From: a virus
Lineage: Duplodnaviria > Caudoviricetes
IMG/VR virus record: IMGVR_UViG_3300030333_004255
Coordinates: 1 to 54,675 of that record
DNA length: 54,675 nt
Strand: one strand, 5' to 3'
Position numbers and translations under genes: made by a program. Of this stretch, positions 6,232-21,162 are shown one piece after another. Under the pieces are notes generated by a model, which was not told the origin of the DNA, searched no databases, and saw nothing but the letters and a program-made list of their open reading frames with translations. The first letter of the stretch is position 1. Each line of letters starts with the position of its first letter.

Positions 6232-6305
6232 CAAGTAGCAAGTAGCAAGTAGCACTAGCGGCAAGTAGCAAGTAGCAAGTAGACCTAGCAGCAAGTAGCA
6301 AGTAG
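6232..6305 (+). repeat. CAAGTAG heptamer array (8 copies)
   Basis: (CAAGTAG)3-CACTAGCGG-(CAAGTAG)3-ACCTAGCAG-(CAAGTAG)2. Confidence 0.95.
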
Positions 6306-6355
6306 TAGGCGCTACTACCCACTAAGGAAAAGCGAAAGAAAAGTTAGCTATAGGC

Positions 6356-6384
6356 TTGACAGGACCTTCCACATGCTTCACAAT
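6356..6384 (+). promoter_or_regulatory. Early sigma70-type promoter
   Basis: TTGACA-N17-CACAAT with an A-rich upstream tract; followed by three short hairpins (about 6391-6447). Confidence 0.7.
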
Positions 6385-6456
6385 GGGGCTGGGACTTGTC
6401 CCGCCGCCTACACAATGTAGGCGGGTTGGTCCTACCAATTAGGTAGGGGTGGTTAC

Positions 6457-6525
6457 TGTCCAATGGTTGGACACTAACTTACTGTCCAAGGTTGGACACT
6501 AACAGTTACTGTCCAAGGTTGGACA
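6457..6525. promoter_or_regulatory. Three tandem TGTCCAA-NN-TTGGACA palindromes
   Basis: 6457-6473 (3-nt spacer), 6483-6498 and 6510-6525, within a repeated TTACTGTCCAAGGTTGGACA(CTAAC) unit. Confidence 0.85.
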
Positions 6526-6529
6526 GAAA

Positions 6530-7483
6530 GTGAAATCAGTCATGGCAAAATCAGCTGACATGAAAAAGCAAGAAGCACACAAGGTTAACTCTACTAAGGC
6601 AGCCTATGCGACCCTAGCAACGCTCAACACGTTGTCCGATATTGCGACTCGGATTGCAGGTCAAGGTGTCGTTGTCCTACGCTCGCCAGCAAGTGGCAAG
6701 GTGCGAGGTGGCAAGCGTGAGACACCCGTAGACGTATTCGACGCGTCTCAATATGGGAAGTCTAAGGCTGCCAGTGCAGGCACTTACAAGGCTGGACATG
6801 CTCATATCTACATTAGCCAAGCGTGTACGCTGAAAGAGGTTCAAGAGTGCCTGGCCAAGGGGCTTTATACGCTCAAGTTCCACCAACCTATCAAAGGTGA
6901 CGCTAGCCTAGAACCGCGCAAGGCAGACCCATTCACGGGAAAAGACCTTACAGGCAAACCAGGTAAGGCTGAATGGAAGTGGGCACGCGCGCAGCTGGCC
7001 CCATTCTCGTCTCAGATTGCGAAGCTATACTGGAGTCCGCTAAAGGCTGTATCATCGGCCAAGCGGGACGCTACCAAGGCCAAGCAAGAAGCAGCCAAGC
7101 AAGAAGCTGAAAAGGGAATGAGCGAAGCTGAGAAGGCTCTTAGCGCTTTCCGCGAAGCTAACAAGCTACCTAAGGTAAGATGGACTCTAGACGGCGCTAA
7201 GATGGACAAGCTACCCTTGGACCAAGTGGAGCGAATCCAAGGTGCAATGACTAAGGCTATGGCCAAGCGGGTTGTCATCAACGCGGCCGACCTTACCAAG
7301 GCCAAGGCATACCGTGACGAAATCACGCCACTGGTAGACGCCGCGCTCAAGTCTCAACCTGCGACTGCAAGCACGGCGGAAAAGAGTCAAGCAGATACCA
7401 AGGCCAAGGCCAAGCGTGCGAACAAGGTCGCAGGTGTCAAGGCCACTCCTAGCCTAAGAGCGGAGTCAGCCAAGGCCAGCTAA
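6530..7483 (+). CDS. First early protein, Lys/Ala-rich, function unknown (start GTG 6530 or ATG 6542)
   Basis: 317-aa ORF directly after the early promoter and palindrome triplet. Confidence 0.8.
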   Translation: MKSVMAKSADMKKQEAHKVNSTKAAYATLATLNTLSDIATRIAGQGVVVLRSPASGKVRGGKRETPVDVFDASQYGKSKAASAGTYKAGHAHIYISQACTLKEVQECLAKGLYTLKFHQPIKGDASLEPRKADPFTGKDLTGKPGKAEWKWARAQLAPFSSQIAKLYWSPLKAVSSAKRDATKAKQEAAKQEAEKGMSEAEKALSAFREANKLPKVRWTLDGAKMDKLPLDQVERIQGAMTKAMAKRVVINAADLTKAKAYRDEITPLVDAALKSQPATASTAEKSQADTKAKAKRANKVAGVKATPSLRAESAKAS

Positions 7484-7545
7484 GCATTCATGCCCTAGCG
7501 CCTCTTAGAATGGATTCTAAGGGGCCCTAGCGGGATAAATGCTTA
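7481..7545 (+). other. Long intergenic hairpin (possible RNase III-type processing site)
   Basis: TAAGCATT/AATGCTTA base, CTAG/CTAG middle, CTTAGAAT/ATTCTAAG top; no U-tract. Confidence 0.55.
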
Positions 7546-7546
7546 G

Positions 7547-7562
7547 TGTCCAAGGTTGGACA
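7547..7562. promoter_or_regulatory. TGTCCAA-NN-TTGGACA palindrome
   Basis: TGTCCAAGGTTGGACA upstream of ORF 7584. Confidence 0.85.
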
Positions 7563-7583
7563 TAAACACACAGGAGACACACA

Positions 7584-7991
7584 ATGCGGAAACACGAAAG
7601 ACTTAGAACACTAGCTGCGCGGCAACTAGACAAGATGACCAGGGAAGCGCAGCTAGACCTAGCACGTTGCACACAAGGGGCGCGAACTAACTACGAGGCT
7701 CGTCGAAAGCAAAACCAGGTGTTCCCGCTCCCAGAGCACCCTATAGGCTCTAACGATTTCAGTGGCTGGTTCCACGGGTCAGGCCAGTTCAAGGTATGGG
7801 GTGCGATGTCCTATCGGGCTAGGGTAGAACTGGCTAGGGTAGCCAAGCCACTAGCAGCCCCTGGGGCGCTGTACGAGAGTGGTATGGCTAACGAGCGGAC
7901 CAGCCCCTACGAGTCAGCGAAGCTAGACGACAATGGGTCCATTCCGAGCGAGTGCGCCTACCTGCTACGCGTCGCGGTTGGTATAGAGTAG
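7584..7991 (+). CDS. Hypothetical early protein
   Basis: 135 aa; RBS CAGGAGACACACAATG. Confidence 0.7.
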   Translation: MRKHERLRTLAARQLDKMTREAQLDLARCTQGARTNYEARRKQNQVFPLPEHPIGSNDFSGWFHGSGQFKVWGAMSYRARVELARVAKPLAAPGALYESGMANERTSPYESAKLDDNGSIPSECAYLLRVAVGIE

Positions 7992-8010
7992 AAAGTATCA
8001 CTACCCACTA

Positions 8011-8148
8011 GGTGCACCACAAAAGTGGTGCATCGTTTGGACTGAAAATGACACAGTGCATAACCACAAAAGTGACTCACGCCACAAAAGTGACGCACCA
8101 CAAAAGTGGTGTCTCCAAATGGATACGCCACAAAAGTGGTGTCTCCAA
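8011..8148 (+). repeat. CCACAAAAGTG repeats (5 copies)
   Basis: Copies start at 8017, 8064, 8082, 8098 and 8128. Confidence 0.9.
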
Positions 8149-8189
8149 TCGTTTACAAGATGTATCCAAGTGGAGACGCCGAAATAGTG

Positions 8190-8322
8190 GTGCCATACAT
8201 GTATGGCAACGTACGTTGCCATATGTTGCCATATGTTGCCATACGTTGCCCTATACGTATGGCAACGTATGTTGCCCTATGTTGCCCTATGTTGCCATAC
8301 GTTGCCATACGTTGCCATACGT
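8190..8322 (+). repeat. 10-bp GTTGCCMTAY tandem array (9 direct and 2 inverted copies)
   Basis: gttgccatat, gttgccatac and gttgccctat units, plus inverted atggcaac copies. Confidence 0.95.
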
Positions 8323-8387
8323 CCTCGCGCGCATGTGGGCGCATGTGTGCGCGCACGACGTAATACAGCGCGAAAATTCTCGAATAC

Positions 8388-8468
8388 TTTTTTTTACGCG
8401 TCACGTGTAAGGGAATTTTTGAAAAAATATTTTTTTTTACGCGTCACGTGTAGAGGAATTTTTGAAAA
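8388..8468 (+). repeat. Two AT-rich direct repeats of about 38 bp
   Basis: T8-ACGCGTCACGTGTA-RRGGAATTTTTGAAAA at 8388-8425 and 8431-8468. Confidence 0.9.
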
Positions 8469-8478
8469 CTTTTTTTAG

Positions 8479-8494
8479 TGTCCAAGTTTGGACA
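8479..8494. promoter_or_regulatory. TGTCCAA-NN-TTGGACA palindrome
   Basis: TGTCCAAGTTTGGACA. Confidence 0.85.
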
Positions 8495-8516
8495 CAAACA
8501 CCAGGAGATACACACA

Positions 8517-8585
8517 ATGTTAGTAGCAGCTTTCTTAACTGTAGGTTTTTTCGGGTTCGCGGGCTGGGATTTCGCACCCCGATGA
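8517..8585 (+). CDS. 22-aa hydrophobic micropeptide
   Basis: MLVAAFLTVGFFGFAGWDFAPR, preceded by the phage's conserved RBS CAGGAGATACACACAATG. Confidence 0.5.
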   Translation: MLVAAFLTVGFFGFAGWDFAPR

Positions 8586-8593
8586 ACCAGGGA

Positions 8594-8834
8594 TTGCAGT
8601 GCAATGCATGCATGGTTGCATGCAGCGTATACCCTATAGGGTATATGCGCTGCACTGCAAGGCGTTGCACACGCTACGCAACTTGCAACTATACGGAATC
8701 ATTAAAGATTCCCGTTTGAGTTGCATAGCGTTGCACTATAATTGCATGATATTTCGTAATTTTCATGCAACGTCCAACTATTTGTAATCATTAGGCTTTT
8801 CAGAGTGGGTTGCACGCCGCTTTTTTTATGCAAC
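8594..8834. repeat. TGCA-rich non-coding block
   Basis: I count 16 TGCA in about 240 bp, plus the palindrome TATACCCTATAGGGTATA. Confidence 0.75.
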
Positions 8835-8854
8835 TCACTATAGACAACAGTTAC

Positions 8855-8870
8855 TGTCCATACTTGGACA
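8855..8870. promoter_or_regulatory. Palindrome variant
   Basis: TGTCCATACTTGGACA, followed by the AAGGAG RBS. Confidence 0.8.
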
Positions 8871-8882
8871 CAAAAGGAGTTC

Positions 8883-9257
8883 GTGATGCACAACGCTCAC
8901 ACGCTACAAATTATGAACCGTCCATCGCCTAGGGCCCAAGGGCTCCTGTTTGAAACGGAACTTCACACTTTCCACCTCGTTCGTAAGGACCGGAAGGGAA
9001 AGCGATTTGAATTCCGCACGTACCAGATTGGTGGCGAAGCGGGCATGGCCCGAGTCAAGAGTGCTGACGTGGATTACACTACCTCTGGCTTCGATGGTGA
9101 GCTGGAAGCCCTAGAGGCTTTCCGTCTCCACCTGGTGAAGGCAGGTATCGTCACGAAGGTCTCGAAATTTCCGCCAAGATTTTTTCCAGGTAGAGGCCAG
9201 CGAGTCTGTCGGTTCAACCCCCACACCGACATGTTCTACGCTGTGAAGGTAAAGTAG
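8883..9257 (+). CDS. Hypothetical early protein
   Basis: 124 aa; AAGGAG RBS. Confidence 0.7.
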   Translation: MMHNAHTLQIMNRPSPRAQGLLFETELHTFHLVRKDRKGKRFEFRTYQIGGEAGMARVKSADVDYTTSGFDGELEALEAFRLHLVKAGIVTKVSKFPPRFFPGRGQRVCRFNPHTDMFYAVKVK

Positions 9258-9341
9258 TGGTACTATTTGCAAAGCTAATAGCGATACTATATCTTTTCAA
9301 ACTGATTAGCCTGGGTTGTGACTGGGCGGAGGATTTCAAAG

Positions 9342-9707
9342 ATGAATTACCAAAGACACGCTGAAGTTAGCCAAGCCATGGTTAATAAGGGCTACCCTCA
9401 ATCAATCAAAAATCTCTCGTTGGATGAGCTGGACAGAATCCAGCAGATGGAGTGCGAGCACATCATGCATCCAGCTATTTACCCTCTCGGAGAGGTGGAT
9501 GATTTGAATGAGTGTACAATTGATGAGCTAGAGGCACGCATCGACAGCTGCCTAGAGTTGGCATCGACCTACGAGCGTCGCTCGAATAACGACTTCCGTC
9601 AGGCTTGGGAGCGTATGAAGTACAGCTCGTGGGCAGAGCGAGTGATGGAAGTGGCGGACGAGCTTGCAGACTTGATCGAGTACAGAAACAACCCACCTAC
9701 ATGGTGA
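9342..9707 (+). CDS. Hypothetical acidic helical protein
   Basis: GGAGG RBS before ATG 9342; internal repeat NLSLDELD / ECTIDELE. Confidence 0.7.
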   Translation: MNYQRHAEVSQAMVNKGYPQSIKNLSLDELDRIQQMECEHIMHPAIYPLGEVDDLNECTIDELEARIDSCLELASTYERRSNNDFRQAWERMKYSSWAERVMEVADELADLIEYRNNPPTW

Positions 9708-9713
9708 ACTTAA

Positions 9714-9729
9714 TGTCCAAAGTTGGACA
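9714..9729. promoter_or_regulatory. TGTCCAA-NN-TTGGACA palindrome
   Basis: TGTCCAAAGTTGGACA. Confidence 0.85.
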
Positions 9730-9734
9730 CAAAC

Positions 9735-9912
9735 TGTAGGAGTTGTGGTCAGACCAAGAACCAACAGGCTGAATTACTGCGGAGTACTGGTAAGTCGTTC
9801 AAACAGAAGAGGCAACGGGCAGGCTGCGTGCCACCTACTGACCTCAAGCAGCTGACTTTTACCATGCCTGCACAGCTGAATAAACGGTGACGTGCTGGCC
9901 ACAACTTCTACA
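9735..9912 (+). ncRNA. Candidate 178-nt rod-like structured RNA
   Basis: 18-bp closing stem TGTAGGAGTTGTGGTCAG/CTGGCCACAACTTCTACA with two G-U pairs that work only on the + strand, plus nested inner helices; no credible + strand ORF. Confidence 0.65.
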
Positions 9913-9917
9913 TTTAA

Positions 9918-9933
9918 TGTCCAAACTTGGACA
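9918..9933. promoter_or_regulatory. TGTCCAA-NN-TTGGACA palindrome
   Basis: TGTCCAAACTTGGACA. Confidence 0.85.
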
Positions 9934-9964
9934 CAAACTGCGAGGCATACTCGCGTAAGGAAAC

Positions 9965-10648
9965 ATGAAAATGTTTGAAGCTCTTTTATATTTTCCGATG
10001 ACTGAAGACGAACGTGCTGATGGTACTTCGATACCTGGCACAGGGGCATGTAAGCTGCTCAAGAAATTTGACAGCATCCACAAGGTACTTGATTGGCTGA
10101 ATACGGTGCGGGCCCAGAATACCAAGTACATGGATACTGGTGAGGGGTTCTGTTATACCTTCCGTCTCTCTGGCTTCAAGTTCCTGGAGCTAAAAACACA
10201 TCAGTATCAAACAGAGTACTCGTCGCGCAGTGGTACGAAGTTAGATGAACTCTCATCGATGGTTTTCGATGTTAATGAATTCATCTCTCGCAATGAGGAT
10301 GATGTGGATGAGTACCTCTTCAAGTGTGTGAAGAAGCACATTATTCAGAAGTATGTCAAGTTCGTGGGGAAGCCCAACCAGTTGGGTGAAGAACTTGGGT
10401 ATGGTACCCGTGTGGTCATCAAGTCCATGGGCGAGGACTTCGCCCTGGTCCACATGGTCCCTGACGGGACGGGGCAGATAGACTTCCACTTCCAGAAGCT
10501 GGACACGTGCCAGCATGAGTGGGTGGAGTCTATGGGGTGGGCATCATACCCGGCTCCCATGGAGACCAAGCCTTCAGTTCGTACCGGTAAGTACACTTGC
10601 CGGAATTGTGGGGAAGAGCGTGTGCATCTTCAGGACACCCCCTTTTAA
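9965..10648 (+). CDS. Hypothetical protein with C-terminal Zn-ribbon (CxH...CxxC)
   Basis: 227 aa; CQHEW...CRNCG. Confidence 0.7.
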   Translation: MKMFEALLYFPMTEDERADGTSIPGTGACKLLKKFDSIHKVLDWLNTVRAQNTKYMDTGEGFCYTFRLSGFKFLELKTHQYQTEYSSRSGTKLDELSSMVFDVNEFISRNEDDVDEYLFKCVKKHIIQKYVKFVGKPNQLGEELGYGTRVVIKSMGEDFALVHMVPDGTGQIDFHFQKLDTCQHEWVESMGWASYPAPMETKPSVRTGKYTCRNCGEERVHLQDTPF

Positions 10649-10654
10649 TTTTAG

Positions 10655-10670
10655 TGTCCAAGTTTGGACA
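10655..10670. promoter_or_regulatory. TGTCCAA-NN-TTGGACA palindrome
   Basis: TGTCCAAGTTTGGACA. Confidence 0.85.
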
Positions 10671-10698
10671 GTAAGTATCCGCGAACCAGGAGAAACCA

Positions 10699-10869
10699 AT
10701 GGTAGATGATCCAACAAAACGTCCATGTCCAAAGTGTAAGTCAGACAAGGTAAGGACCTACACACACCCAAGAGGCTTATCGTTCGGCTGCTACGTGCAG
10801 TGCGACAGGTGCGTAACGGTTGTTCGAGACTACACCATAGATAACTATACATCGAAACGAAAAGGTTGA
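10699..10869 (+). CDS. Small Zn-ribbon protein, Lar-like
   Basis: My translation: MVDDPTKRPCPKCKSDKV...YVQCDRC... (56 aa); AGGAG RBS. Confidence 0.6.
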   Translation: MVDDPTKRPCPKCKSDKVRTYTHPRGLSFGCYVQCDRCVTVVRDYTIDNYTSKRKG

Positions 10870-10879
10870 GGGTTACCCA

Positions 10880-11143
10880 ATGACAATCTCTCATATGAAA
10901 GCCCTGGCTGTACTCATCATAGAGTACTCAGGTTCATCAACTCCTCATGACTTAGCAGTTGTGGCACATGCCAAAGCCCTCGTGATGGGGTTGGAGAAAC
11001 TTGAAAAGGAACTCCTGAAAATGCAGGAGGACCTTGGGGATGTATGGGTGACAGATACACGTGACCAGAGAATGTGGTCATCGATAGACGACAGGTTTGA
11101 AACAATTTTACAGGGAGAGACTAATGATCTGCCACGTAGTTAG
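10880..11143 (+). CDS. Hypothetical protein
   Basis: 87 aa in the early gene run; GAGGG RBS. Confidence 0.6.
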   Translation: MTISHMKALAVLIIEYSGSSTPHDLAVVAHAKALVMGLEKLEKELLKMQEDLGDVWVTDTRDQRMWSSIDDRFETILQGETNDLPRS

Positions 11144-11618
11144 GACAGAAGGGGGTGAGACCACCACCAAAACTTTTCAAAATCTTCTCGCCGCAGTGAG
11201 CTACATCGATGAGATGGAGGAGAAGATTGAGGGGTGGTGGAATGAACTAACCCCACGTAACTTTCAGTGTGAACTGGTATTCGAGGGAGGGTTCTCCATA
11301 CAGGAGACAGTGGTGAATGACGCTGGCACATTCACAGACCCGCAGAAAAAATTCGATGAGTGGGACCTAAGCGCACCACGAGGAAAATCATCTGGTTACA
11401 CAGCTGGGCCAAAGGGTGAGTTCATGCATGACTTTCAAACTTGGCTCATTGATGGACTGTGCTTTGAGTACGGTTTGGATGATGGGGAAGTGTACAGAAT
11501 TATACAAATGTACGTAGACGGAAAGCCCATTGTAACTGTGAGCATTGGACATGGTGGGTATACAGCCCACCGTTACAAGTGGAACGATAGTACCTTTCAT
11601 TATGAGGGGGTGTCATGA
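11124..11618 (+). CDS. Hypothetical protein
   Basis: GGGAG RBS before ATG 11124; ATGA coupling to the next gene. Confidence 0.65.
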   Translation: MICHVVRTEGGETTTKTFQNLLAAVSYIDEMEEKIEGWWNELTPRNFQCELVFEGGFSIQETVVNDAGTFTDPQKKFDEWDLSAPRGKSSGYTAGPKGEFMHDFQTWLIDGLCFEYGLDDGEVYRIIQMYVDGKPIVTVSIGHGGYTAHRYKWNDSTFHYEGVS

Positions 11619-12058
11619 CACACGAAGAAGAAATCCAAAAGCTAAAGACTACCATCTCCAAGCAACGCAAGAGTAGGAAGGAGGTAAACAAAGAGCTGGC
11701 TAATGAGAAGCTACGCTACTCAAAACTAGAGGAGAAGTTTAACAAGCTGGCCCAAAAACCTAAGACTCCACTGAGAAAACAACTTGAGAACGTCAAGAGA
11801 AACTATTCTCAGGCGTTGTCTTCCGAGCGTGAAATAAAAAGAGAGTACGATAACTTCGTCAAGGTAAATCAAAAACGTGTGGATCACTGGCAAAAGACAG
11901 CGGAGGGTTTCGCAAAGCAGGTTGAATCACTCAAGGAAGAACTTCGAAAGTCAAAACAAAATAACCGTGAAACCATGGTCGAGATTCTAGAGGCACAGCT
12001 ACCGGCAGGGTTTCACAACATCCTTAACAGGTTACTTAACCCAGAGGATTACCAATGA
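11615..12058 (+). CDS. Coiled-coil hypothetical protein
   Basis: 147 aa, K/E/Q-rich heptads. Confidence 0.7.
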   Translation: MTHEEEIQKLKTTISKQRKSRKEVNKELANEKLRYSKLEEKFNKLAQKPKTPLRKQLENVKRNYSQALSSEREIKREYDNFVKVNQKRVDHWQKTAEGFAKQVESLKEELRKSKQNNRETMVEILEAQLPAGFHNILNRLLNPEDYQ

Positions 12059-12255
12059 AAAAGCAGACACTACTTAGACAGCTAGCATCAACCCACAATC
12101 AACTGGCCGAGGCTTTGGATAGGGCAGAGGCAGCAGAGCGTAGGGCACAGCAGCCCGTAGAGGAGGAGCCAGAAGTTTCTTACAACTTCTTTGGGATTGT
12201 AATTGCCCTAGGTGTTGTAGGTGCAGGGGTGTGGGGGATGTTGACCTATGTCTAA
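12055..12255 (+). CDS. Small protein with a C-terminal transmembrane helix
   Basis: FFGIVIALGVVGAGVWGML; GAGG RBS. Confidence 0.65.
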   Translation: MKKQTLLRQLASTHNQLAEALDRAEAAERRAQQPVEEEPEVSYNFFGIVIALGVVGAGVWGMLTYV

Positions 12256-12430
12256 TGCATTTAACATAGCTCTCGTATGGAGCTGCATCATCCTAATCAT
12301 AAAAGGTATCTGGCACATGAAGGTAGGGGGAGAAGCAAACTATGAAGCGATGAAGTGGTTGTGGATTACAGCAGCGTTCTCGCTGACAGTCTTCCACGTG
12401 GTTGTAACAAATAAGAATAAGAGAACTTAG
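12248..12430 (+). CDS. Small two-TM membrane protein
   Basis: Two hydrophobic segments; overlaps the upstream stop. Confidence 0.55.
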   Translation: MSNAFNIALVWSCIILIIKGIWHMKVGGEANYEAMKWLWITAAFSLTVFHVVVTNKNKRT

Positions 12431-12459
12431 AACAGGGTAAAACACACAGGAGAACACAC

Positions 12460-12645
12460 ATGAGTTTTTTCAAGAAGAGTAATGGACAGTCAACTACCCC
12501 ACGCCAGGACATGGCGCGTCACATGGTGGAGTTCGTAGAGAATGGGGGAAGCCAGGAAGTGGCTGATGAGTTTGAAGAGGCTTCAGCTATTGGTCACCGA
12601 CCACAAGGGTGTACACGTACACCAACAAAAGAATATAGAGAGTAG
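12460..12645 (+). CDS. Hypothetical protein
   Basis: RBS AGGAGAACACACATG. Confidence 0.65.
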   Translation: MSFFKKSNGQSTTPRQDMARHMVEFVENGGSQEVADEFEEASAIGHRPQGCTRTPTKEYRE

Positions 12646-12808
12646 CTTTTTTTTCAGTAACCCTATAGACTTTAGTTAATAGATAACATAATCACCGGGG
12701 GAATAATGATAGAGGAATATTTTAAACAGGAGTTTTTAACCCCTTTGCCAGCCTTACTTGGTTGGTTGGGATTGAAGTTAACCGGATTGATTTTTACAGG
12801 AGAGTAGA

Positions 12809-12979
12809 ATGCGTAGAGGAAAAGCAGCACTTGAAGAACGTAGAAACACAGCAGCTGAGTTGAAAGCTCAGCGTGCAGCACGGTCACCTGAACAACAGCT
12901 CGAAGTAATTAAGAGCCGTCCTGGTCAGAGTGCGCGTGAGACTACACGTCTTCAGGCACAGATTAAAGCGGCTAAGTAA
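12809..12979 (+). CDS. Small basic helical protein (56 aa)
   Basis: My translation: MRRGKAALEERRNTAAELKAQRAARSPEQQL...; AGGAG RBS. Confidence 0.65.
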   Translation: MRRGKAALEERRNTAAELKAQRAARSPEQQLEVIKSRPGQSARETTRLQAQIKAAK

Positions 12980-12991
12980 AACACCACAGCC

Positions 12992-13020
12992 TGGGCATGC
13001 TTTGAACTGCCCATCTTTTT
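12992..13020 (+). terminator. Putative intrinsic terminator or small pseudoknot
   Basis: TGGGCA-N10-TGCCCA followed by TCTTTTT. Confidence 0.5.
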
Positions 13021-13022
13021 AA

Positions 13023-13038
13023 TGTCCAAGTTTGGACA
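13023..13038. promoter_or_regulatory. TGTCCAA-NN-TTGGACA palindrome
   Basis: TGTCCAAGTTTGGACA. Confidence 0.85.
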
Positions 13039-13058
13039 CTAACTTATCGGAGACACAC

Positions 13059-13646
13059 ATGACAGTAGTAGCAGCAGGACCAATTATCGAAGCAACCAAG
13101 AAGACCAAGGGTCGAGACGGTAGCTCTCACTTCCTAACTCTCATCGGCGAGCGTCCCAATGGTAGCCAATGGGGTGGCGAGATGACCGAGGAGATCCTAG
13201 AGTTGTTCATCGCCACGGGTACCGTGGTTCCTCACGAGGAGCTGAGTCCCAACCAGGTAACCAAGGGGTGTGTCTACGTGAAGGTGGCTCAGGGTTTGGT
13301 GAGTAAACTTTTTCCCAACGCAACCTTCGACGTTCAGACTTCAAACAACCTCCTTCGATCTCAAATCCTAGTGGTGAGAAAGTCTATCCACGAGGGGCAG
13401 TTCGATGAAGACGGTAATCCTTTCAACGGGGTTGAGAATAAGTTCGAGCTTCAGACGAAGGTGCCTTTCGATGGGCAGGCCACCGATGAAGCTTGGGTAA
13501 TCCTCGGGCCTGGGGCTGACGGTCTTGTGATTTACACCACCTACCCTGGCCCGCTCCTAGGGGACATGCCAGAAAATTGGGATGGTAACGCGGATAAGCT
13601 GGACTTGTACCGGGATGCGTACCCGGTCAAGCGTTACCAGGGTTAA
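13059..13646 (+). CDS. Hypothetical protein
   Basis: Start reassigned to GGAGACACACATG (13059); VILGP...IYTTYPGP. Confidence 0.75.
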   Translation: MTVVAAGPIIEATKKTKGRDGSSHFLTLIGERPNGSQWGGEMTEEILELFIATGTVVPHEELSPNQVTKGCVYVKVAQGLVSKLFPNATFDVQTSNNLLRSQILVVRKSIHEGQFDEDGNPFNGVENKFELQTKVPFDGQATDEAWVILGPGADGLVIYTTYPGPLLGDMPENWDGNADKLDLYRDAYPVKRYQG

Positions 13647-13656
13647 CAAACAGGGT

Positions 13657-13744
13657 ACCCCTGCCCGAGGTGTTGCCTGGTGGCATACCCCAATGGAGCG
13701 CGCACTCCGGGGAGGCGTTGGTTCAAATCCAACCGGGCGGGGGT
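13657..13744 (+). ncRNA. tRNA-like RNA without a canonical anticodon loop
   Basis: Perfect T-arm GTTGG-TTCAAAT-CCAAC stacked on an 11-bp stem (13657-13667/13734-13744); D-like arm TGCC-TGGT-GGCA; no CCA. Confidence 0.6.
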
Positions 13745-13753
13745 TCAGTTTTC

Positions 13754-13769
13754 TGTCCAACTTTGGACA
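13754..13769. promoter_or_regulatory. TGTCCAA-NN-TTGGACA palindrome
   Basis: TGTCCAACTTTGGACA. Confidence 0.85.
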
Positions 13770-13787
13770 CTAACGAAAGGTTAGAAG

Positions 13788-14234
13788 ATGTGGAAAATAA
13801 ATTTCCCAGAGGGAAGTAAAGTACGAGTGTACCACGACAACGAGAAGGCTTGCTCAGGTTACTCTGATGAGTTTTTAATTAAGGGTCCGCGACCAAGTGA
13901 GATCGTGAGCATCTACCCTGAAGATGGGTTTGAGTCTGAACTGCTGATGGATTTGGTTGGTGGTTCCACCGTTCAGATGAATATGCGGTGGGGTGAAGGC
14001 CCGCGCTACGATCCTGACGGTAGCCTCGTAGATGAGGAACACCTCATCAGTTGTACAATTGAAGAGTACTGCGAAGCATTCTTCAAACGTGAGGATTCAG
14101 AAGAACTATTCAATGGTTTCTGGAGCGGGCAGTACTATCACTGCTTCCACATCGATACCAGCTACTGCAAGATTGCAAGCGGTACTTCAGGTGCTGGGGG
14201 TTTTGTGCTTCGAAATCCAAAGGATAAGTCATGA
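13788..14234 (+). CDS. Hypothetical protein
   Basis: 148 aa; ATGA-coupled to the next gene. Confidence 0.7.
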   Translation: MWKINFPEGSKVRVYHDNEKACSGYSDEFLIKGPRPSEIVSIYPEDGFESELLMDLVGGSTVQMNMRWGEGPRYDPDGSLVDEEHLISCTIEEYCEAFFKREDSEELFNGFWSGQYYHCFHIDTSYCKIASGTSGAGGFVLRNPKDKS

Positions 14235-14635
14235 CTAACAAAGAAGACATAGTGATGACCTTTGGTGGGGACACCAGGCTAGCTTGTAAGAACACCCTTC
14301 CTACACCTAAACAAATCGCAAAGTCCGTATGCTTCCGTAAAGAAATTGATTGGAAGATTTGGGCCAACGACACCTGTGTACGAGAACGAGATTTTGAAAC
14401 AGAAGTATTTGATAGTGAGCGAGAACAACTGCATCACGCTGCGTCAATCTGTCGTGACTTGTACAAGATTCAGAAGGGGCGCAAGTCAGTCACACTACAC
14501 GCATGGAGGAGAGGAACGAAAACAGGTTTGTTTATCCTCCGCTTCCATGGTCGTGAAGACTGCGCCATGAATCTAAACAACTGGAAAATCTATGAGCTGT
14601 GGTGTGAACGCTGCGACAAGGAGAGATGGGTGTGA
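14231..14635 (+). CDS. Hypothetical protein
   Basis: 134 aa; AAGGA RBS. Confidence 0.65.
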   Translation: MTNKEDIVMTFGGDTRLACKNTLPTPKQIAKSVCFRKEIDWKIWANDTCVRERDFETEVFDSEREQLHHAASICRDLYKIQKGRKSVTLHAWRRGTKTGLFILRFHGREDCAMNLNNWKIYELWCERCDKERWV

Positions 14636-15027
14636 GAGAACTAAAAGTATTTAGGGTTGACCACCTTGGCTACACCTGGTGCCAGAGTTGTATGTTTCAA
14701 GGCAACCCTGGGAAGTGTGACGAGACGTTTGCGTCAGTGCCTGACGAGCACCTTGGTTATGAAGACAAGTGCGATGGTTGCGAATCACCTACGGAGGATT
14801 GGCCTGGTATGCCTTGGCATACAAACGGACGCCTACCTGTATGGCCTGAAGGTTGTATCAACAAGTTCATTGAGCAGTGGGGTGAACCTCTTCGAAGGCA
14901 AGGCTTATCGGAAAAGGAAATATATAAACACTGGTGGGAGAAACACTATGGAATACCACATCAGGAGATTGAACGAGAGTTGAAACTACAACGCGAGGCT
15001 TGGCCCATAGCTAAGGAGAAGTCATGA
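14626..15027 (+). CDS. Hypothetical protein with two CxxC pairs
   Basis: CQSC...CDGC; AAGGAG RBS. Confidence 0.65.
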   Translation: MGVRELKVFRVDHLGYTWCQSCMFQGNPGKCDETFASVPDEHLGYEDKCDGCESPTEDWPGMPWHTNGRLPVWPEGCINKFIEQWGEPLRRQGLSEKEIYKHWWEKHYGIPHQEIERELKLQREAWPIAKEKS

Positions 15028-15323
15028 GCAGAACATTAGTTGAATCCTTTTCAAATGGATTTCTGAAACCATCAGAATGTTTGGATGACTTCCTTGCTGA
15101 TGAGTGGGGAGTCACTGATGAATACGGTTGCTGGTACATAGCTCAGTGGGAGGGTGACATGGATGACTCACCCCATGCAGCTGACTTACAATACGATGGC
15201 AAACGTTACATCTTCAACACGTATTATTCTGGGCCAGGTGTAGTGGTAAGGGGCTGCACGTATGGTGACAGAGAACTAGCAATCAAAGCTTTCAAAAAGT
15301 TAATGTCCAATGTTGGACAGTAA
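15024..15323 (+). CDS. Hypothetical protein
   Basis: 99 aa; AAGGAG RBS; 3' end runs through a palindrome. Confidence 0.65.
   Translation: MSRTLVESFSNGFLKPSECLDDFLADEWGVTDEYGCWYIAQWEGDMDDSPHAADLQYDGKRYIFNTYYSGPGVVVRGCTYGDRELAIKAFKKLMSNVGQ
15304..15319. promoter_or_regulatory. TGTCCAA-NN-TTGGACA palindrome
   Basis: TGTCCAATGTTGGACA. Confidence 0.85.
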
Positions 15324-15333
15324 GGAGAGACAC

Positions 15334-15582
15334 ATGAGTAACCCATTCCCAGACACACAGTATGACGCACTACTAAAGAAAGTTATGAACGAGTTTGCAC
15401 ATATGAAAAACCATCTAACCTATATGGAAAAACAGTGTGATGAGTTCCGTATGTACATCGAGGAACTCGAAGATGAGCTGATTCGGTTTCAAGATCCTGA
15501 TGCTACAGCTGAGGACTACCAGGTTCCTACTCAATATGGACAGCCAGGTGCAGGGAAGACTTACGCTGTAGAGGGAGAGTAA
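15334..15582 (+). CDS. Hypothetical coiled-coil protein
   Basis: Start reassigned to AAGGAGAGACACATG. Confidence 0.65.
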   Translation: MSNPFPDTQYDALLKKVMNEFAHMKNHLTYMEKQCDEFRMYIEELEDELIRFQDPDATAEDYQVPTQYGQPGAGKTYAVEGE

Positions 15583-15584
15583 AG

Positions 15585-16121
15585 ATGGGAGTGTACACAC
15601 ATTTATTAAACAAGTCCAAACCATGGACGGTGCCAGGTTTAGGCAAGGTATTCAATTTGAAGTACTCACATCGCAGTTCGGATGAGAACATCAACAAGTG
15701 GCACAGCGAGGACAAGGAGGGGAAACGAATCACTTCTCTTGCACTCGCACGTAATCAAAGGTCTGTAGATAACTGGTTCCCAACTGAGTACGTTTATTTT
15801 GCTTACGATTTAGATGACCAGGAAGTGGGCTCCATCTTCAAGGTTTTCCGGGGGAGGACAGACAACAGGGACCTACGAGTCTGGTACGACTGCAATGACG
15901 ACCCTGGTGAATGGGTGGGCACTGTAGAAGTACTCAACCTAAAGCCTCGAAAGAAACTTCGTTACCTACCTGTACCTCCTAGACCAGTGGATGAAACGAA
16001 AGAGACTTACATCTGCGAAGAATGCAATGAGGAAAAACCCTGGTCTAACGGAAGCGATTCATCTCCAGAGTGTGATGACTGTTGGGCCAAGAACCAGGAG
16101 AACGAGGGTGAAAACCTATAA
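15585..16121 (+). CDS. Hypothetical protein with C-terminal Zn finger
   Basis: CEEC...CDDC; GGGAG RBS. Confidence 0.7.
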   Translation: MGVYTHLLNKSKPWTVPGLGKVFNLKYSHRSSDENINKWHSEDKEGKRITSLALARNQRSVDNWFPTEYVYFAYDLDDQEVGSIFKVFRGRTDNRDLRVWYDCNDDPGEWVGTVEVLNLKPRKKLRYLPVPPRPVDETKETYICEECNEEKPWSNGSDSSPECDDCWAKNQENEGENL

Positions 16122-16380
16122 ATATAAAGTCAAACTCTTCATTGACGACTCAACCAACAAAGGCGTCCGTCGTTTGATGTACGGTGTTTATGACTACTGT
16201 GAGCAGCACGAGTATTTCAGAGAGGCAGAGTTCGAGAAGGTGTGGACTGCTATCATGCCCATAAGGCTAGAAGCTTTCAACTCTCGTATACTTGGAAATA
16301 TGGATTCGCAAGTTGTGCCTGAAGTCGTCAGCGTTACTAAAAGCTACTGGAAAAACTACCGTAAAAGATACGGACTATAG
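16108..16380 (+). CDS. Hypothetical protein
   Basis: GTG start after AGGAG. Confidence 0.55.
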   Translation: MKTYKYKVKLFIDDSTNKGVRRLMYGVYDYCEQHEYFREAEFEKVWTAIMPIRLEAFNSRILGNMDSQVVPEVVSVTKSYWKNYRKRYGL

Positions 16381-16439
16381 GAGAACACACATGGGTAAAG
16401 CAGAAGACGTTATCAGTGAAGAGAAGAGGAGACTTCGTG

Positions 16440-16838
16440 ATGGATGATTTTGTACAGAGAGAAGTAGAAAAAGATTTGGCTATGTTGAGAGGCTTGGACC
16501 GAAGGAGTCTTGCAGAAAGGAAGGAATCACGTGACGACTATGCAAAGATTCTCAAGGACCCGGAAGAGTTAGACATTGTTCTAAGGGACTTCTTCTCCTT
16601 CTCTTATGGGGAGGGTGCTAGATTTTTATTAGAGCGGGTTCTAAAAAATCCCCACAAACGTACAAACAAAGTGGCTCAAATCAGCGCAATGATAGCAGGG
16701 TTTGAATGTAAATGCCCTAATCGGTATGCGAAGGATGCCTACGTTCTCCAGCTAACACAACCAGAAAGAGACGCAGCTAACGAGCTATTCAAGAGATACA
16801 TCAAGGAATGGGAGGAAGAACAAAATGTGGACGCATAG
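16440..16838 (+). CDS. Hypothetical protein
   Basis: GAGGAG RBS. Confidence 0.65.
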   Translation: MDDFVQREVEKDLAMLRGLDRRSLAERKESRDDYAKILKDPEELDIVLRDFFSFSYGEGARFLLERVLKNPHKRTNKVAQISAMIAGFECKCPNRYAKDAYVLQLTQPERDAANELFKRYIKEWEEEQNVDA

Positions 16839-17088
16839 AACTTATGATGGGCACACCATCTGCGCTTACTCATCAGGATACTTAGATTGGGGGTTGAAGA
16901 TCACCGACGACTTAGGCTTTGTTGTGTTTAACAACCCACACTACCTGTCTAATGACTCTTGGGGTTTCAATGATCCAGAGGATGAGGATTCAGATGAGAG
17001 AATATCTTGGTCCGACCAAGAGTGGAAGGACGCGCTAAGGGAAAAAGCGGATGAGTTTATAGATTTGGTTTACTACCCAGAGGATTAA
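16825..17088 (+). CDS. Hypothetical acidic protein
   Basis: GGAGG RBS; D/E-rich. Confidence 0.65.
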   Translation: MWTHRTYDGHTICAYSSGYLDWGLKITDDLGFVVFNNPHYLSNDSWGFNDPEDEDSDERISWSDQEWKDALREKADEFIDLVYYPED

Positions 17089-17092
17089 AATA

Positions 17093-17230
17093 ATGAAACT
17101 TCAAAAAGAATTTCTAACCCAGGCTGAGGCTTGGGCATGGGTACAAAAACAGAAGCAGCCCAAACGCGGGGACTACTTCATCGAGAAAGATATCATGTCA
17201 GGCAAGTATGTTGTCTGGCTCATGGACTAG
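17093..17230 (+). CDS. Small hypothetical protein (45 aa)
   Basis: My translation: MKLQKEFLTQAEAWAWV...; GAGGA RBS; fills the gap. Confidence 0.55.
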   Translation: MKLQKEFLTQAEAWAWVQKQKQPKRGDYFIEKDIMSGKYVVWLMD

Positions 17231-17245
17231 ATCAGGGAGAAAAAC

Positions 17246-17452
17246 ATGACATCCATTAACATCCACCGTGTAGAGAAGCTAAAGATTGAAGATCTTAAAA
17301 TTGAATCTGAGGCTTACGACCAGGGTTACTTCTACGTGAAGAGGTTAGTTGTTCACTCTGAAGATGGTGATTTCCAAATTGACTTATTGTCTACCGAACA
17401 CTGCGCTCACTCTTATGAAAACAAAACAAACAGTTACTATGGAGAGGATTGA
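17246..17452 (+). CDS. Hypothetical protein
   Basis: GGGAG RBS. Confidence 0.6.
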   Translation: MTSINIHRVEKLKIEDLKIESEAYDQGYFYVKRLVVHSEDGDFQIDLLSTEHCAHSYENKTNSYYGED

Positions 17453-17490
17453 TTTTATTTTCCTCCCCTCATAGACATGAGGTATAAGCT

Positions 17491-17937
17491 ATGATAAACA
17501 TACAGCTGGAGATGCAGACACTTCGGTCTGCGTTAACAAATCTTCTCCAATTAGGAGTAAGCCGTAATTATTTACGGCAGGAAGTGAAGCAAACTATGGA
17601 CAACTGGCAACGCAAACTAACCACACGAAAGCCTGTACAGACAGGACTACCAGGGCCAGGGGACTTCGACCCTCCTGAGAGTAACCACGTAGACTTTGAT
17701 GGTATCCTCATGGAGGAGGACATCAGAGATTATTTGGAAAACCCACAGGTTCTGGGTGACTTGCTAGCCTTTGAGTCAGGCCCTGGCTCAGCCACTGAGA
17801 TGATGACCAAATATCTTTGGTCTCATTACTGCGGTGTATGTGATGAAACTACAGCGCATTACGAGAAGAAGATGATAGAGTTGTTACGCAATGTCTTTGA
17901 AAAAGAAATTGAAGAATTAGTAAATGGCAAATTGTAG
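17491..17937 (+). CDS. Hypothetical protein
   Basis: 148 aa; GAGG RBS. Confidence 0.6.
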   Translation: MINIQLEMQTLRSALTNLLQLGVSRNYLRQEVKQTMDNWQRKLTTRKPVQTGLPGPGDFDPPESNHVDFDGILMEEDIRDYLENPQVLGDLLAFESGPGSATEMMTKYLWSHYCGVCDETTAHYEKKMIELLRNVFEKEIEELVNGKL

Positions 17938-17946
17938 GAGGCAGTA

Positions 17947-18252
17947 ATGGCGAGCATGAAAGTAGAGCAAACGTCGCTTGTTTTCCAAGAGCTAGGGGAG
18001 AACAGGAGTCAGGCAGTGAGGGCTGCCCACCTGGCTGAACAATGTTGGGCACTATGCATCCGAATGGATGATGTAAATCTTAGAAGTCATCTGCTTAACA
18101 TGTCAGTGCGTGAGCTTGCAGCTATTTACGGGTCAGCTGCTGGGGAGGGAACGGCGTTTGATTTCCGAACAGACAGCGAGAAAGAAGAGGGTTTACCCGT
18201 GACCAGTACCAAAATTGCTAACTTTGTAAGGGAGCAGGGATGGAGGAAGTGA
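17947..18252 (+). CDS. Hypothetical protein
   Basis: AGGAGG RBS. Confidence 0.65.
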   Translation: MASMKVEQTSLVFQELGENRSQAVRAAHLAEQCWALCIRMDDVNLRSHLLNMSVRELAAIYGSAAGEGTAFDFRTDSEKEEGLPVTSTKIANFVREQGWRK

Positions 18253-18473
18253 AACCCCTAAGAGCGGGAATGCTCATAATCTGGGCTTCAGTTTCACTTT
18301 TCTTATCAGTGTTCTTTGGATTCTGTGTTGGGTTCTACTTTGATTACCAACATATATTCAGCTGGAGCAACTACCTTTTATTTACAGGTAGTGTTTTAGG
18401 TTTAGTTATTCTGATACTTCTACAAACAGCTTTATTGTATAAGCTAGAAAAACATATAGAAGATTCAGATTAG
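18240..18473 (+). CDS. Two-TM membrane protein
   Basis: Two long hydrophobic segments. Confidence 0.6.
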   Translation: MEEVKPLRAGMLIIWASVSLFLSVFFGFCVGFYFDYQHIFSWSNYLLFTGSVLGLVILILLQTALLYKLEKHIEDSD

Positions 18474-18547
18474 TATTGACGTAGTTAGTGTAAAGCTAAT
18501 AGATAAATAATGTGGTTTTATTTACAACAAATGCTAGAAGCATTTAC

Positions 18548-18563
18548 TGTCCAAACATGGACA
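18548..18563. promoter_or_regulatory. Palindrome variant (last copy)
   Basis: TGTCCAAACATGGACA, upstream of the DUF932 gene. Confidence 0.75.
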
Positions 18564-18582
18564 TTAAACAGGAGAGATACAC

Positions 18583-19560
18583 ATGCCAGCAGCGGTAGAA
18601 ACTATGATGTATGCAGGAGCAACACCTTGGCACGGAGAGGGCACCTATGTAGGTGACCAAGATGTTCTGAGTAAGGAGGCCCTCGTGGCTTCTGGTTTGG
18701 AGTGGGGTGTTCACAAAGCGGAGTGTTATGCTCAAGATGAGGGCGGTGATATTTTCATCCCTGATATGAGAGCAGTACTTCGAGATACTGACAATGCCTA
18801 CATGGGTATGGTCGGTAAAGACTTTCACCTTCTTCAGAACAGTGAAGCCTTTGAGTTCATGGACTCCCTGGTTGAAGAGGGTAAGATGAGATACCATACT
18901 GCGGGCTCTCTCCGTAACGGTAAGCGTATCTTTATCCTTGGTAAGATTGGAGAGTACGAGGCTCTGCCTAATGATTTGGTAGACAAGTATATCCTGCTTT
19001 ACAACTCCCACGATGGTACCGGGGCACTACGGTGTCTTCCGACAACAGTGCGGGTTGTCTGTGCTAACACTGTGAACATGGCTTTGAGCCAGGGACGAGG
19101 GCAGGGTATCTCGGTACGCCATACTAAGAACATGCGTTCTCGTATGGATGAAGCTCACAAGATTTTTGGCCTTGCTCAGGATCAGCTTTCTGAGGCCGAG
19201 GAGTTTCACAAGGCTCTTGCTCAGACCACTATGACCAATGGTCAGTGGGATGAGTTTGCTAACATCCTTATCCCTGACCCTGTTGGTGAAGGTAAGGACG
19301 GCAAGCCTAAGAACCCTAAGCGTGCTCAGAACAACCGGGACAAGCTTCAGAACTTGTACCTTATGGGACGGGGCTCTGAGATCAGCGGTGTTCGTTTCAC
19401 ACCTTGGGCTGCTTACAATGCGGTGACTGAGTACGTGAACTACGAGCGTAGTTCTCGTGGTGGCCAGGCCAACCGCTTTGAGTCTGCACTCTTTGGTAGT
19501 GGTGCGACTCTGATTCAGAAGGCTGAGTCAACACTCAAAGAAATGTTCCTGGCAGCATGA
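18583..19560 (+). CDS. DUF932/DUF945-family phage/plasmid protein (TIGR03299-like)
   Basis: PWHGEG, LQNSEAFEF, TAGSLRNGKR, NSHDG, VRVVCANT and WAAYNAVTEY motifs. Confidence 0.9.
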   Translation: MPAAVETMMYAGATPWHGEGTYVGDQDVLSKEALVASGLEWGVHKAECYAQDEGGDIFIPDMRAVLRDTDNAYMGMVGKDFHLLQNSEAFEFMDSLVEEGKMRYHTAGSLRNGKRIFILGKIGEYEALPNDLVDKYILLYNSHDGTGALRCLPTTVRVVCANTVNMALSQGRGQGISVRHTKNMRSRMDEAHKIFGLAQDQLSEAEEFHKALAQTTMTNGQWDEFANILIPDPVGEGKDGKPKNPKRAQNNRDKLQNLYLMGRGSEISGVRFTPWAAYNAVTEYVNYERSSRGGQANRFESALFGSGATLIQKAESTLKEMFLAA

Positions 19561-19823
19561 TGTCAGTGGCGATGAGATGTTCCCTACTCGCGTTGTGGGT
19601 AGGGAGCTTCTCTCTCCATCTGTCCAGTTGTGCTACCACATCTAAACATATTGAATTCGAAGTGCCGTGTGATTGTATAACGGTTCAAGATCAATATGAG
19701 TTAGACCAGACTATCGATAACGCTCTTTTTGAATACGATAATAAAGACGTAGATGGGCTGACGCGCACAATGAACAGATTACAGAGAGAGAAGTTTAAAC
19801 GTAACATTGAGAGGACTAAATGA
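19557..19823 (+). CDS. Putative lipoprotein
   Basis: Hydrophobic signal sequence ending in the lipobox LSSC. Confidence 0.55.
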   Translation: MMSVAMRCSLLALWVGSFSLHLSSCATTSKHIEFEVPCDCITVQDQYELDQTIDNALFEYDNKDVDGLTRTMNRLQREKFKRNIERTK

Positions 19824-19949
19824 AGGTTAAAAAAGTCTACTTAATTCCAGCACGGACTTACTGGGTTGGGATGGGATTGCTCCTGTTCAATGCCGTAGCG
19901 TTACTTACAGTAAGGCTCTGGTTCAGTGGATGTTAGAAAGGGGGGACCA

Positions 19950-20342
19950 ATGAAAGTACAAGTGTATAGAAATCTCAAACACGGTAAGGGTAGGCACAGT
20001 CACTTCTGGTCAATCAAGCACAAGGGTAAAGTCATCAACAAATCTCAGCCGACTCAGGGCGTGGTGCTTCAGAACGTCTCTGTCCGCCTCTGGTTGAAGA
20101 CTGTTGAGAAGATCAGGGAGACAGGTGTAAAGACACCAGCAGCTTTCTTAGAGGGAGACCTCACAACTTACAGCGGCGTTGTTCGTTGGACCGAGAGTGA
20201 CCAGCCAGAGGGCACAGAGAGGATTACCTTCAACCCTCACCACCTAAGTAACTTCGTATGGGAATCTGATGGGAAAGTTGTTGAGGGTATTCTTGATAAG
20301 GTCTGGTTCACAAAGGAAGGCGTATTTGCACATAGAAACTAA
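19950..20342 (+). CDS. Phage hypothetical protein
   Basis: VQVYRNLK...WSIK...ITFNPH pattern recalled from other phage early proteins; function unknown. Confidence 0.7.
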   Translation: MKVQVYRNLKHGKGRHSHFWSIKHKGKVINKSQPTQGVVLQNVSVRLWLKTVEKIRETGVKTPAAFLEGDLTTYSGVVRWTESDQPEGTERITFNPHHLSNFVWESDGKVVEGILDKVWFTKEGVFAHRN

Positions 20343-20373
20343 TCGTGAGTTCACACGATTAAGGAAAGGACAC

Positions 20374-20823
20374 ATGAAAATACATGAGTTAGCAACTGAG
20401 TTTGCTGAGGTAGCCAGGCTCAGTCCTGATTTGGTTCAACCTAAGTATGGGGGTGAGAAGGGTTCTCTTCGAGGACACTGCTATGTTTTGACTGAGGCGT
20501 TGTGGTACGAGAGGGGTAAGGCCACGGGTTGGAAACCCACGTACCTAAACTCTAAGACATGGCCAGAAGGTCTCATGCCTGGGGAAACACACTGGTATTT
20601 GGTAAGAACTTTTGGTCAGGAGAACATCACATTTTACGAAGTGTGTGACCCTACAGCAGAACAGTTTGATATCAAAATTCCTTACTACGAAGGCAGGTCA
20701 TGCGGCTTTCAGACAAAGGAGCCAAGTAAGAGAACCAAGTCTTTGATTGCCAGGGTGAAGTACATCAGAATTATGAAGAATATAGAAACTCAAGTTTGGG
20801 AAAGCATAGGAGAACACACATGA
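20374..20823 (+). CDS. Putative papain/transglutaminase-fold protein
   Basis: GHCYV...HWYL...DPTAEQF in Cys-His-Asp order; start AAGGACACATG. Confidence 0.6.
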   Translation: MKIHELATEFAEVARLSPDLVQPKYGGEKGSLRGHCYVLTEALWYERGKATGWKPTYLNSKTWPEGLMPGETHWYLVRTFGQENITFYEVCDPTAEQFDIKIPYYEGRSCGFQTKEPSKRTKSLIARVKYIRIMKNIETQVWESIGEHT

Positions 20824-21152
20824 CATATGAATCTTTAACTAGAGCCACATTCAAACCCCCGCAGTTTGATCAAGGTGACAAGCATTTGTATGAAAGGGAG
20901 AACGGTTGGGGTTTCTCTTGCAACATGGTTTCAAACTGTCACACGGTTTTTAGTGGGTGTCACCACAATTACGAAGTGAGAGATCGTCTGGTATCAGCAG
21001 GTGTAATAAATGAAACATGTGAAGAAGACACTGAGAGTTCTTGCATGTACGTATACTTTAAAACAAAAGATGACGGGCTTGCATTTCTTGACCGTTTGAA
21101 TAAGTACCTCGTATCCAAATCAGAAAAGCTGTTAGCAGCATTAGCCTACTAA
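20820..21152 (+). CDS. Hypothetical protein
   Basis: Start reassigned to AGGAGAACACACATG. Confidence 0.7.
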   Translation: MTYESLTRATFKPPQFDQGDKHLYERENGWGFSCNMVSNCHTVFSGCHHNYEVRDRLVSAGVINETCEEDTESSCMYVYFKTKDDGLAFLDRLNKYLVSKSEKLLAALAY

Positions 21153-21162
21153 GGAGAACTTT

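Follow-up and report, generated by a model that had tools for sequence, protein, structure and literature searches.

The 6S RNA is a rod of ~150–200 nt in which two long helices flank a large central bubble. The RNase III sites of the T7 early mRNA are intergenic hairpins in an early polycistronic transcript, and elements of the ERIC and MITE types are imperfect palindromes of 100–200 bp in transcribed intergenic DNA, whose presence is polymorphic. In T4-type phages, recombination between repeated promoter/stem-loop motifs (PeSLs) gives indels and replacements in variable regions (PMC2839356, PMC4122927). Here we describe a hairpin cassette, real and delimited, at positions 9735–9912 of a marine phage genome, for which the PeSL shuffling of T4-type phages is the best-fitting mechanistic precedent.

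The window, that is, the whole stretch of DNA that was analyzed, is an entire IMG/VR virus record of 54,675 bp. PHROG matches on its - strand were to a portal, large terminase, head protease, major head protein and tape measure, and those on its + strand were to a helicase, primase, exonuclease and family-A DNA polymerase. On the basis of this gene set we classify the phage as a siphovirus rather than a T4-like myovirus. Its closest cultured capsid relatives are the Roseobacter phages RDJL Phi 1 and 2 (42.9% identity), and the sequencing runs containing the stretch (21 listed) were from marine or seawater metagenomes, with no RNA run among the 21. A - strand ORF at 3–722, flanked by the head protease and the major head protein, runs off base 1, and the major head protein is placed at the opposite end of the record; because the ORF is broken at base 1 and this protein lies at the far end, the record looks like a circularly permuted complete genome. 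The hairpin sits inside a rightward block of small ORFs without a Pfam family (~6.5–18.5 kb), and no relatives were found in viral_contigs for the neighboring proteins encoded at 9965–10648, 9318–9707, and 8883–9257.

Two 26-bp direct repeats, 9711–9736 and 9915–9940, lie on either side of the hairpin. They were present as claimed in the preliminary description and match at 25 of their 26 bases, the sole difference being one central base and no common run exceeding 14 nt, but they are not specific to the cassette, being two of 12 copies of a general early-region motif, which we call motif A (Table 1). Motif A has the core TGTCCAA-NN-TTGGACA, and its aligned copies read TTTAnTGTCCAAnnTTGGACA followed by a short tail. 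With up to three mismatches allowed, its 16-nt core, GTCCAAASTTGGACAC, occurs at 12 loci from 6484 to 18549; on both strands together there were 23 hits, including one weak hit at 52884, against 0.89 expected, a number reached in none of 100 shuffles. In every copy except that at 9715, a GGAG-type RBS and a + strand start codon lie within ~45 nt downstream, or, for the tandem copies at 6484–6511, the next motif A copy. The copy at 9715 is the only one that precedes a hairpin instead of an ORF, and the hairpin therefore occupies a slot otherwise used by protein genes, between two motif A copies. An AGGAG at 9738–9742 is at the usual position of the RBS after motif A and is here buried in the closing stem of the hairpin.

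Table 1. Features of the hairpin locus and copies of the early-region palindromes (positions are those of the window unless a contig is named).
Feature	Position	Strand	Remark
5' closing-stem arm	9735–9752	+	18/18 paired with 9895–9912, two G-U included
Conserved core, predicted noncoding	9753–9894	+	core-only fold no better than shuffles
3' closing-stem arm	9895–9912	+	pairs with 9735–9752
Motif A, three in tandem	6452–6526	+	ahead of the first + strand early ORF, 6530–7483
Motif A	7548–7563	+	precedes ORF starting at 7584
Motif A	8480–8495	+	
Motif A	8856–8871	+	precedes 124-aa ORF 8883–9257
Motif A, left copy	9711–9736	+	hairpin follows, no RBS/ORF
Motif A, right copy	9915–9940	+	serves 227-aa ORF starting at 9965
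Motif A	10656–10671	+	precedes ORF starting at 10699
Motif A	13024–13039	+	
Motif A	13755–13770	+	precedes ORF starting at 13788
Motif A	15305–15320	+	
Motif A, last copy	18549–18564	+	precedes DUF932 gene 18583–19560
CTAATCGTAA-N4-TTACGATTAG palindrome, 4 copies	L094 205–229, 1878–1902, 2041–2065, 2386–2410		
CTAATCGTAA-N4-TTACGATTAG palindrome, 11 copies	G011 (related contig) 8974–21673		

Motif A may be a promoter, an operator or an RNA hairpin, and it did not fit the combination of a sigma-70 promoter with an intrinsic terminator. Sigma-70-like sites were not in excess in a promoter scan (12 vs. 13.8 expected), and the two that fall at motif copies (7557 and 8489) would set the -10 hexamer on the start codon. 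No T-run follows the palindrome on the + strand. There is also no large ORF of RNA polymerase size on the + strand of the window. The only recognizable DNA-binding regulator among the + strand ORFs scanned was a YdaS/Cro-type helix-turn-helix protein encoded at 22052–22282 (E 2e-24). This protein was rejected as the partner of the motif: it is 76% identical in G011, a phage with a different palindrome (motif B, below), and missing from the motif A contigs G001, G003, and G005, and thus its presence does not track motif type. The motif A palindrome is also clustered in three viral contigs with a DNA polymerase of only 25–29% identity. Five contigs with a 59–92% identical capsid protein had neither the 9300–10700 region nor motif A. 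A literature search with the letters of motif A gave unrelated primer matches only.

Other features were observed in the part of the early region that carries motif A. Tandem repeats are densely packed at 6232–8470, which separates the structural gene block from the divergent early one; among them are units of 7 nt (x10), 10 nt (x10.5) and 43 nt (x2), the last carrying a hairpin and then a T-run. These repeats resemble iterons, and the long "ORFs" listed in the same interval are probably repeat artifacts. Directly after the motif copy at 8480 there is a 22-aa ORF (8520–8588, from ATG) with a good RBS, which falls within a listed 35-aa ORF and encodes a hydrophobic peptide.

Exact probes for the core of the hairpin identified two contigs, L094 and L095, in metagenome_contigs, and there was no match in viral_contigs or genome_contigs (185,579 species genomes). 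A blastn search of 50,697 phage records returned nothing but one 39-nt chance match (E 0.6), and an Infernal model, R1, recovered its three training copies only, with none in G001–G005 or G011–G014. Comparisons of full copies consequently involve three sequences, those of the window, L094 and L095; within the 54,675-bp record the 9735–9912 interior is single-copy. L095 matches 9710–9924 at 93% and has motif A on both sides, with a different gene, of 195 aa, upstream. L094 matches only 9756–9892 (97.1% identity), its flanks being unrelated genes, and its core sits between two copies of a different palindrome of its own. Among Logan contigs, that of run X3 includes the hairpin, is unrelated in sequence upstream of 9723 and shows a 12-nt gap within the right motif, and X5 covers 9784–10054. 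A further Logan contig, from run X4, has flanks that are 96–97% identical and joins 9709 directly to 9914, and its joint omits 204 nt corresponding to the hairpin and one repeat. Based on this empty joint and the contexts in L095, L094 and X3, near relatives differ in whether they carry the unit, which occurs in at least four genomic contexts; this supports the earlier suggestion that it is carried as a cassette.

The break points between these relatives fall at or within palindromic motifs. Where the phage of the window has TGTCCAA-NN-TTGGACA, close relatives have the alternative palindrome CTAATCGTAA-N4-TTACGATTAG, and such differences at equivalent positions indicate that the motif type switches between related phages. 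A third palindrome of the same build was seen upstream of the hairpin in run X3. The identity of the core (97% for L094 and 93% for L095) compares with 79–81% for neighboring homologous DNA, and the core is thus much better kept than its surroundings, although a recent transfer, instead of constraint, could explain why it is so similar in different contexts.

As + strand RNA, 9735–9912 has a minimum-energy fold of -66.5 kcal/mol (z -3.75), and none of 200 shuffles was as good. This fold reproduced the interrupted hairpin that had been drawn by eye, with an 18-bp closing stem that includes two G-U pairs, followed by the helices ACC/GGU, GGCUG/CAGCU, a long UGCGG.../...CUGCA, GAGG/CCUC, and GGC/GCC. 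The three full copies fold at -66.5, -67.4, and -64.5, with the closing stem kept in all three, and folds that included the flanks had z values of -5.0 and -6.5; the stem extends to ~35 bp if both flanking motif copies also pair. The - strand was weaker as RNA (-58.2, z -1.42, with 12 of 200 shuffles as good), and with DNA parameters neither strand was unusual (z -1.37 and -0.02). These predictions support the view that the pairing suits + strand RNA better than the - strand or DNA, in agreement with the RNA-level selection on the + strand that had been proposed for this element. In a crude arm-versus-arm alignment, wobble-type mismatches had no strand bias (3 vs. 5), and the strand argument consequently depends on the fold energies and the closing stem.

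The interior alone (9753–9894, 142 nt) behaved differently from the whole element. Its energy of -37.1 was close to the shuffle mean of -37.03 (z -0.02, 99 of 200 as good) and fell at the 50th percentile of a separate set of 300 shuffles, against which its ensemble diversity was low (p 0.077) and its nesting depth high (p 0.09). The difference between this z value and that of the whole indicates that the excess stability comes entirely from the 18-bp closing stem, which is far beyond chance, while the interior rod is weakly supported as an ordered structure by these predictions. The expectation that the hairpin would fold better than shuffled controls was therefore upheld for the whole rod and not for its interior.

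The arms of L094 differ from those of the window, yet pair over 20 or more bp. In an alignment fitted to a model of the structure, nine of the 17 closing-stem pairs change on both sides, which 0 of 500 shuffles reached, with the proviso that all nine double changes derive from one sequence, L094, and that the alignment was itself fitted to the structure. The L094 arms are two copies of its own intergenic palindrome, and because any two direct copies of a palindrome will necessarily pair, part of this "covariation" is, by comparison of the arms, a motif swap. The window arms resemble the L094 palindrome at 10 of 16 and 11 of 18 positions and are themselves non-palindromic, yet they are 18/18 paired, which by this comparison would exceed the expectation for a motif remnant. 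Since non-palindromic arms pair in full, we take the closing stem to be under selection with moderate confidence. The interior helices are invariant among the three copies and so covariation neither supports nor contradicts them. A cluster of apical changes in L095 restores a 5-bp hairpin.

A second noncoding block was observed at 8586–8852, which folds at -97.4 kcal/mol (z -6.5) and is 79–84% conserved in L094, L095, and G011. In a three-sequence alignment, both partners differ in ten of its predicted pairs, some of which belong to a perfect palindrome with jointly changing arms, and the block is rich in GTTGCA/TGCAAC words. It looks stronger than the 9735–9912 hairpin and may represent a structured RNA or, at the DNA level, a site like an origin.

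The unit might alternatively be a gene for a small basic protein of 55 aa, with the hairpin being the mRNA folded on itself. Consistent with this reading, the 55-codon frame is open in the window, from a TTG inside motif A, and in L094, where it starts at an ATG that precedes the motif and overlaps the stop codon upstream. However, these starts are in or before the regulatory motif and have no RBS, and the frame in L095 is broken by an early TGA as well as by the deletion of 2 nt. A 36-codon frame that is open in the window and L095 is stopped in L094, and every frame is interrupted in at least one of the three full copies. Six point differences in the core are known from L094, L095, X3, and X5, and five of these are nonsynonymous in the 55-codon frame, including a change of Leu to Pro. 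The same six all fit the fold, four being unpaired and two turning G-U into G-C, although the chance probability of this outcome is ~0.06, as 71% of possible transitions are compatible. In protein searches with the 55-aa frame, Pfam gave no family at its cut-off (best E 0.068), a 5.8-billion protein index returned the query alone, and HMMER against 1.84 billion protein representatives found no credible relatives; a leucine-rich-repeat ROCO protein matched only through its repeats and was judged spurious. A similarity of this frame to excisionase/AlpA helix-turn-helix proteins was considered and was not borne out by Pfam, and no relatives were found for a - strand ORF over the core. The broken frames, the nonsynonymous changes and the null protein searches lead us to conclude, from sequence comparison, that 9735–9912 is noncoding, and a small protein gene is the least probable of the explanations that we considered. 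A folded mRNA of the hok type (type I toxin) was also rejected, as the conserved small ORF is missing, with no frame open in all three copies.

The preliminary description had proposed a defense sensor or a 6S-like decoy; as a decoy, the hairpin RNA would bind the host RNA polymerase holoenzyme via a bubble that mimics an open promoter. Like 6S RNA, the element is ~180 nt (178 nt), has its own ends closing the hairpin and has a sizeable internal loop, of 14 x 17 nt, which follows the 18-bp closing stem and leads into a long irregular helix, and it sits among early-region genes without known function. This loop is composite, however, as it appears only on ignoring the 3-bp ACC/GGU helix, and it lies near one end rather than centrally as in 6S RNA. 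Kinship to 6S was not borne out by covariance-model searches of Rfam, which found no family at gathering score over the whole window and, in the interval surrounding the element (9650–10000), neither 6S nor another relevant family at E ≤ 10, nor by the fold of the interior, which was no better than shuffles. The element further differs from 6S RNA in being phage-borne and dispensable, and a literature search on 6S-like phage RNAs gave no relevant paper or precedent among the records listed. The decoy idea is possible but unsupported, and we regard it as very improbable; the defense sensor is likewise speculative. Retron msr-msd RNA was rejected since the adjacent reverse transcriptase gene is missing: no such domain was found with Pfam in the neighboring ORFs and 42 + strand ORFs of 6.5–32.5 kb, or among 18 large ORFs scanned with PHROGs. 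A reading as an integron attC site was considered and dropped; no integrase domain was found among the + strand ORFs scanned. ARAGORN identified no tRNA in the window. The gap after ORF 13032–13646 contains a tRNA-like stretch (13663–13738) whose T arm, GGTTCAAATCC, looks canonical and whose Rfam tRNA-Sec score is 20.4 bits (gathering score 47, E 0.067); this stretch may have decayed from a tRNA or may mimic one.

Of the explanations that give the hairpin no action of its own in trans, the foremost is a cis-acting hairpin of the early mRNA, that is, an RNase III-type processing or stabilizing site between cistrons. As with the T7 sites, the hairpin is intergenic and in sense orientation within an early polycistronic transcript; its closing stem is a near-perfect duplex of 18–26 bp (~35 bp with the motif copies), and in L094 it begins 7 nt past one ORF, with the 3' arm ending ~7 nt before the next start codon. 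Unlike the T7 sites, it is about three times longer, is conserved in its interior sequence and is present or absent between relatives. A processing hairpin needs no 140-nt interior held at 93–97% identity, the close relative X4 does without the hairpin at the identical junction, and other intergenic sites in the window carry the short motif only, all of which make this reading rather unlikely. Ranking below it, and above the small protein, is a DNA palindrome, selfish or neutral, that passes from one phage genome to another without benefit to the phage. Such an element would account for the 18-bp inverted ends with direct repeats on both sides, the empty site with one repeat copy in X4 and the near-complete identity across unrelated contexts, and the hairpin is, like ERIC and MITE elements, an imperfect palindrome of 100–200 bp in transcribed intergenic DNA with polymorphic presence. 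These elements, however, have several copies per genome and conserved terminal inverted repeats, whereas here there is one copy per genome and the ends differ between the window and L094; variable ends around a conserved interior are the reverse of what is expected for transposase-bound ends. In addition, all three full copies are oriented with the flanking genes, the flanking repeats belong to a pre-existing motif family and the fold is not significant as DNA, and we consider a selfish palindrome improbable.

The explanation that we favor, with a probability of about 0.5, is that 9735–9912 is an accessory noncoding unit of the variable early region, with a core of ~140 nt and an 18-bp closing stem, which gives a + strand hairpin RNA and is shuffled by recombination at intergenic palindromes. 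The cassette is probably expressed as + strand RNA. It would be transcribed rightward together with the early genes and the transcript would fold as a + strand hairpin, whose paired ends might protect the RNA, or might be cut by a double-strand-specific RNase that releases it. The conserved core would then act via its sequence on a host or phage factor. Gain and loss of the unit would occur by recombination between motif copies, as for PeSL cassettes, and the fact that it is carried, lacked or relocated in related marine siphoviruses, with break points at palindromes, fits such a process.

The likeness to the PeSLs of T4-type phages (PMC2839356, PMC4122927) lies in a short regulatory motif with a stem-loop that is repeated through a variable early region and in indels or replacements between close relatives that are bounded by motif copies. 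Here the repeated intergenic motif, at 12 loci, flanks variable early genes, and the direct joint in X4 and the different neighbors in other relatives are changes of this kind. Unlike the PeSLs, which are from T4-like myoviruses, the motif here is in a siphovirus, its payload is a noncoding hairpin instead of an ORF, and motif A does not scan as a sigma-70 early promoter with a terminator stem-loop.

A more specific reading, which we put forward only tentatively, is that the hairpin represents a new family of phage-borne, horizontally exchanged RNAs, made early as a stable closed RNA whose conserved core of ~140 nt would titrate a host protein, for example RNA polymerase, a ribonuclease or a defense protein that senses RNA. 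The early regions of uncultured phages are read as encoding almost nothing but small unknown proteins. With three full copies, 9735–9912 is a well-delimited candidate for a noncoding unit that stands in a gene slot, is better conserved than its neighbors and is swapped between phages; if this is true, RNA genes would share the accessory pool of such regions. The unit would then be a compact candidate RNA for interference with the host, and, as a cassette that phages trade, the RNA equivalent of their small early "host-takeover" proteins.
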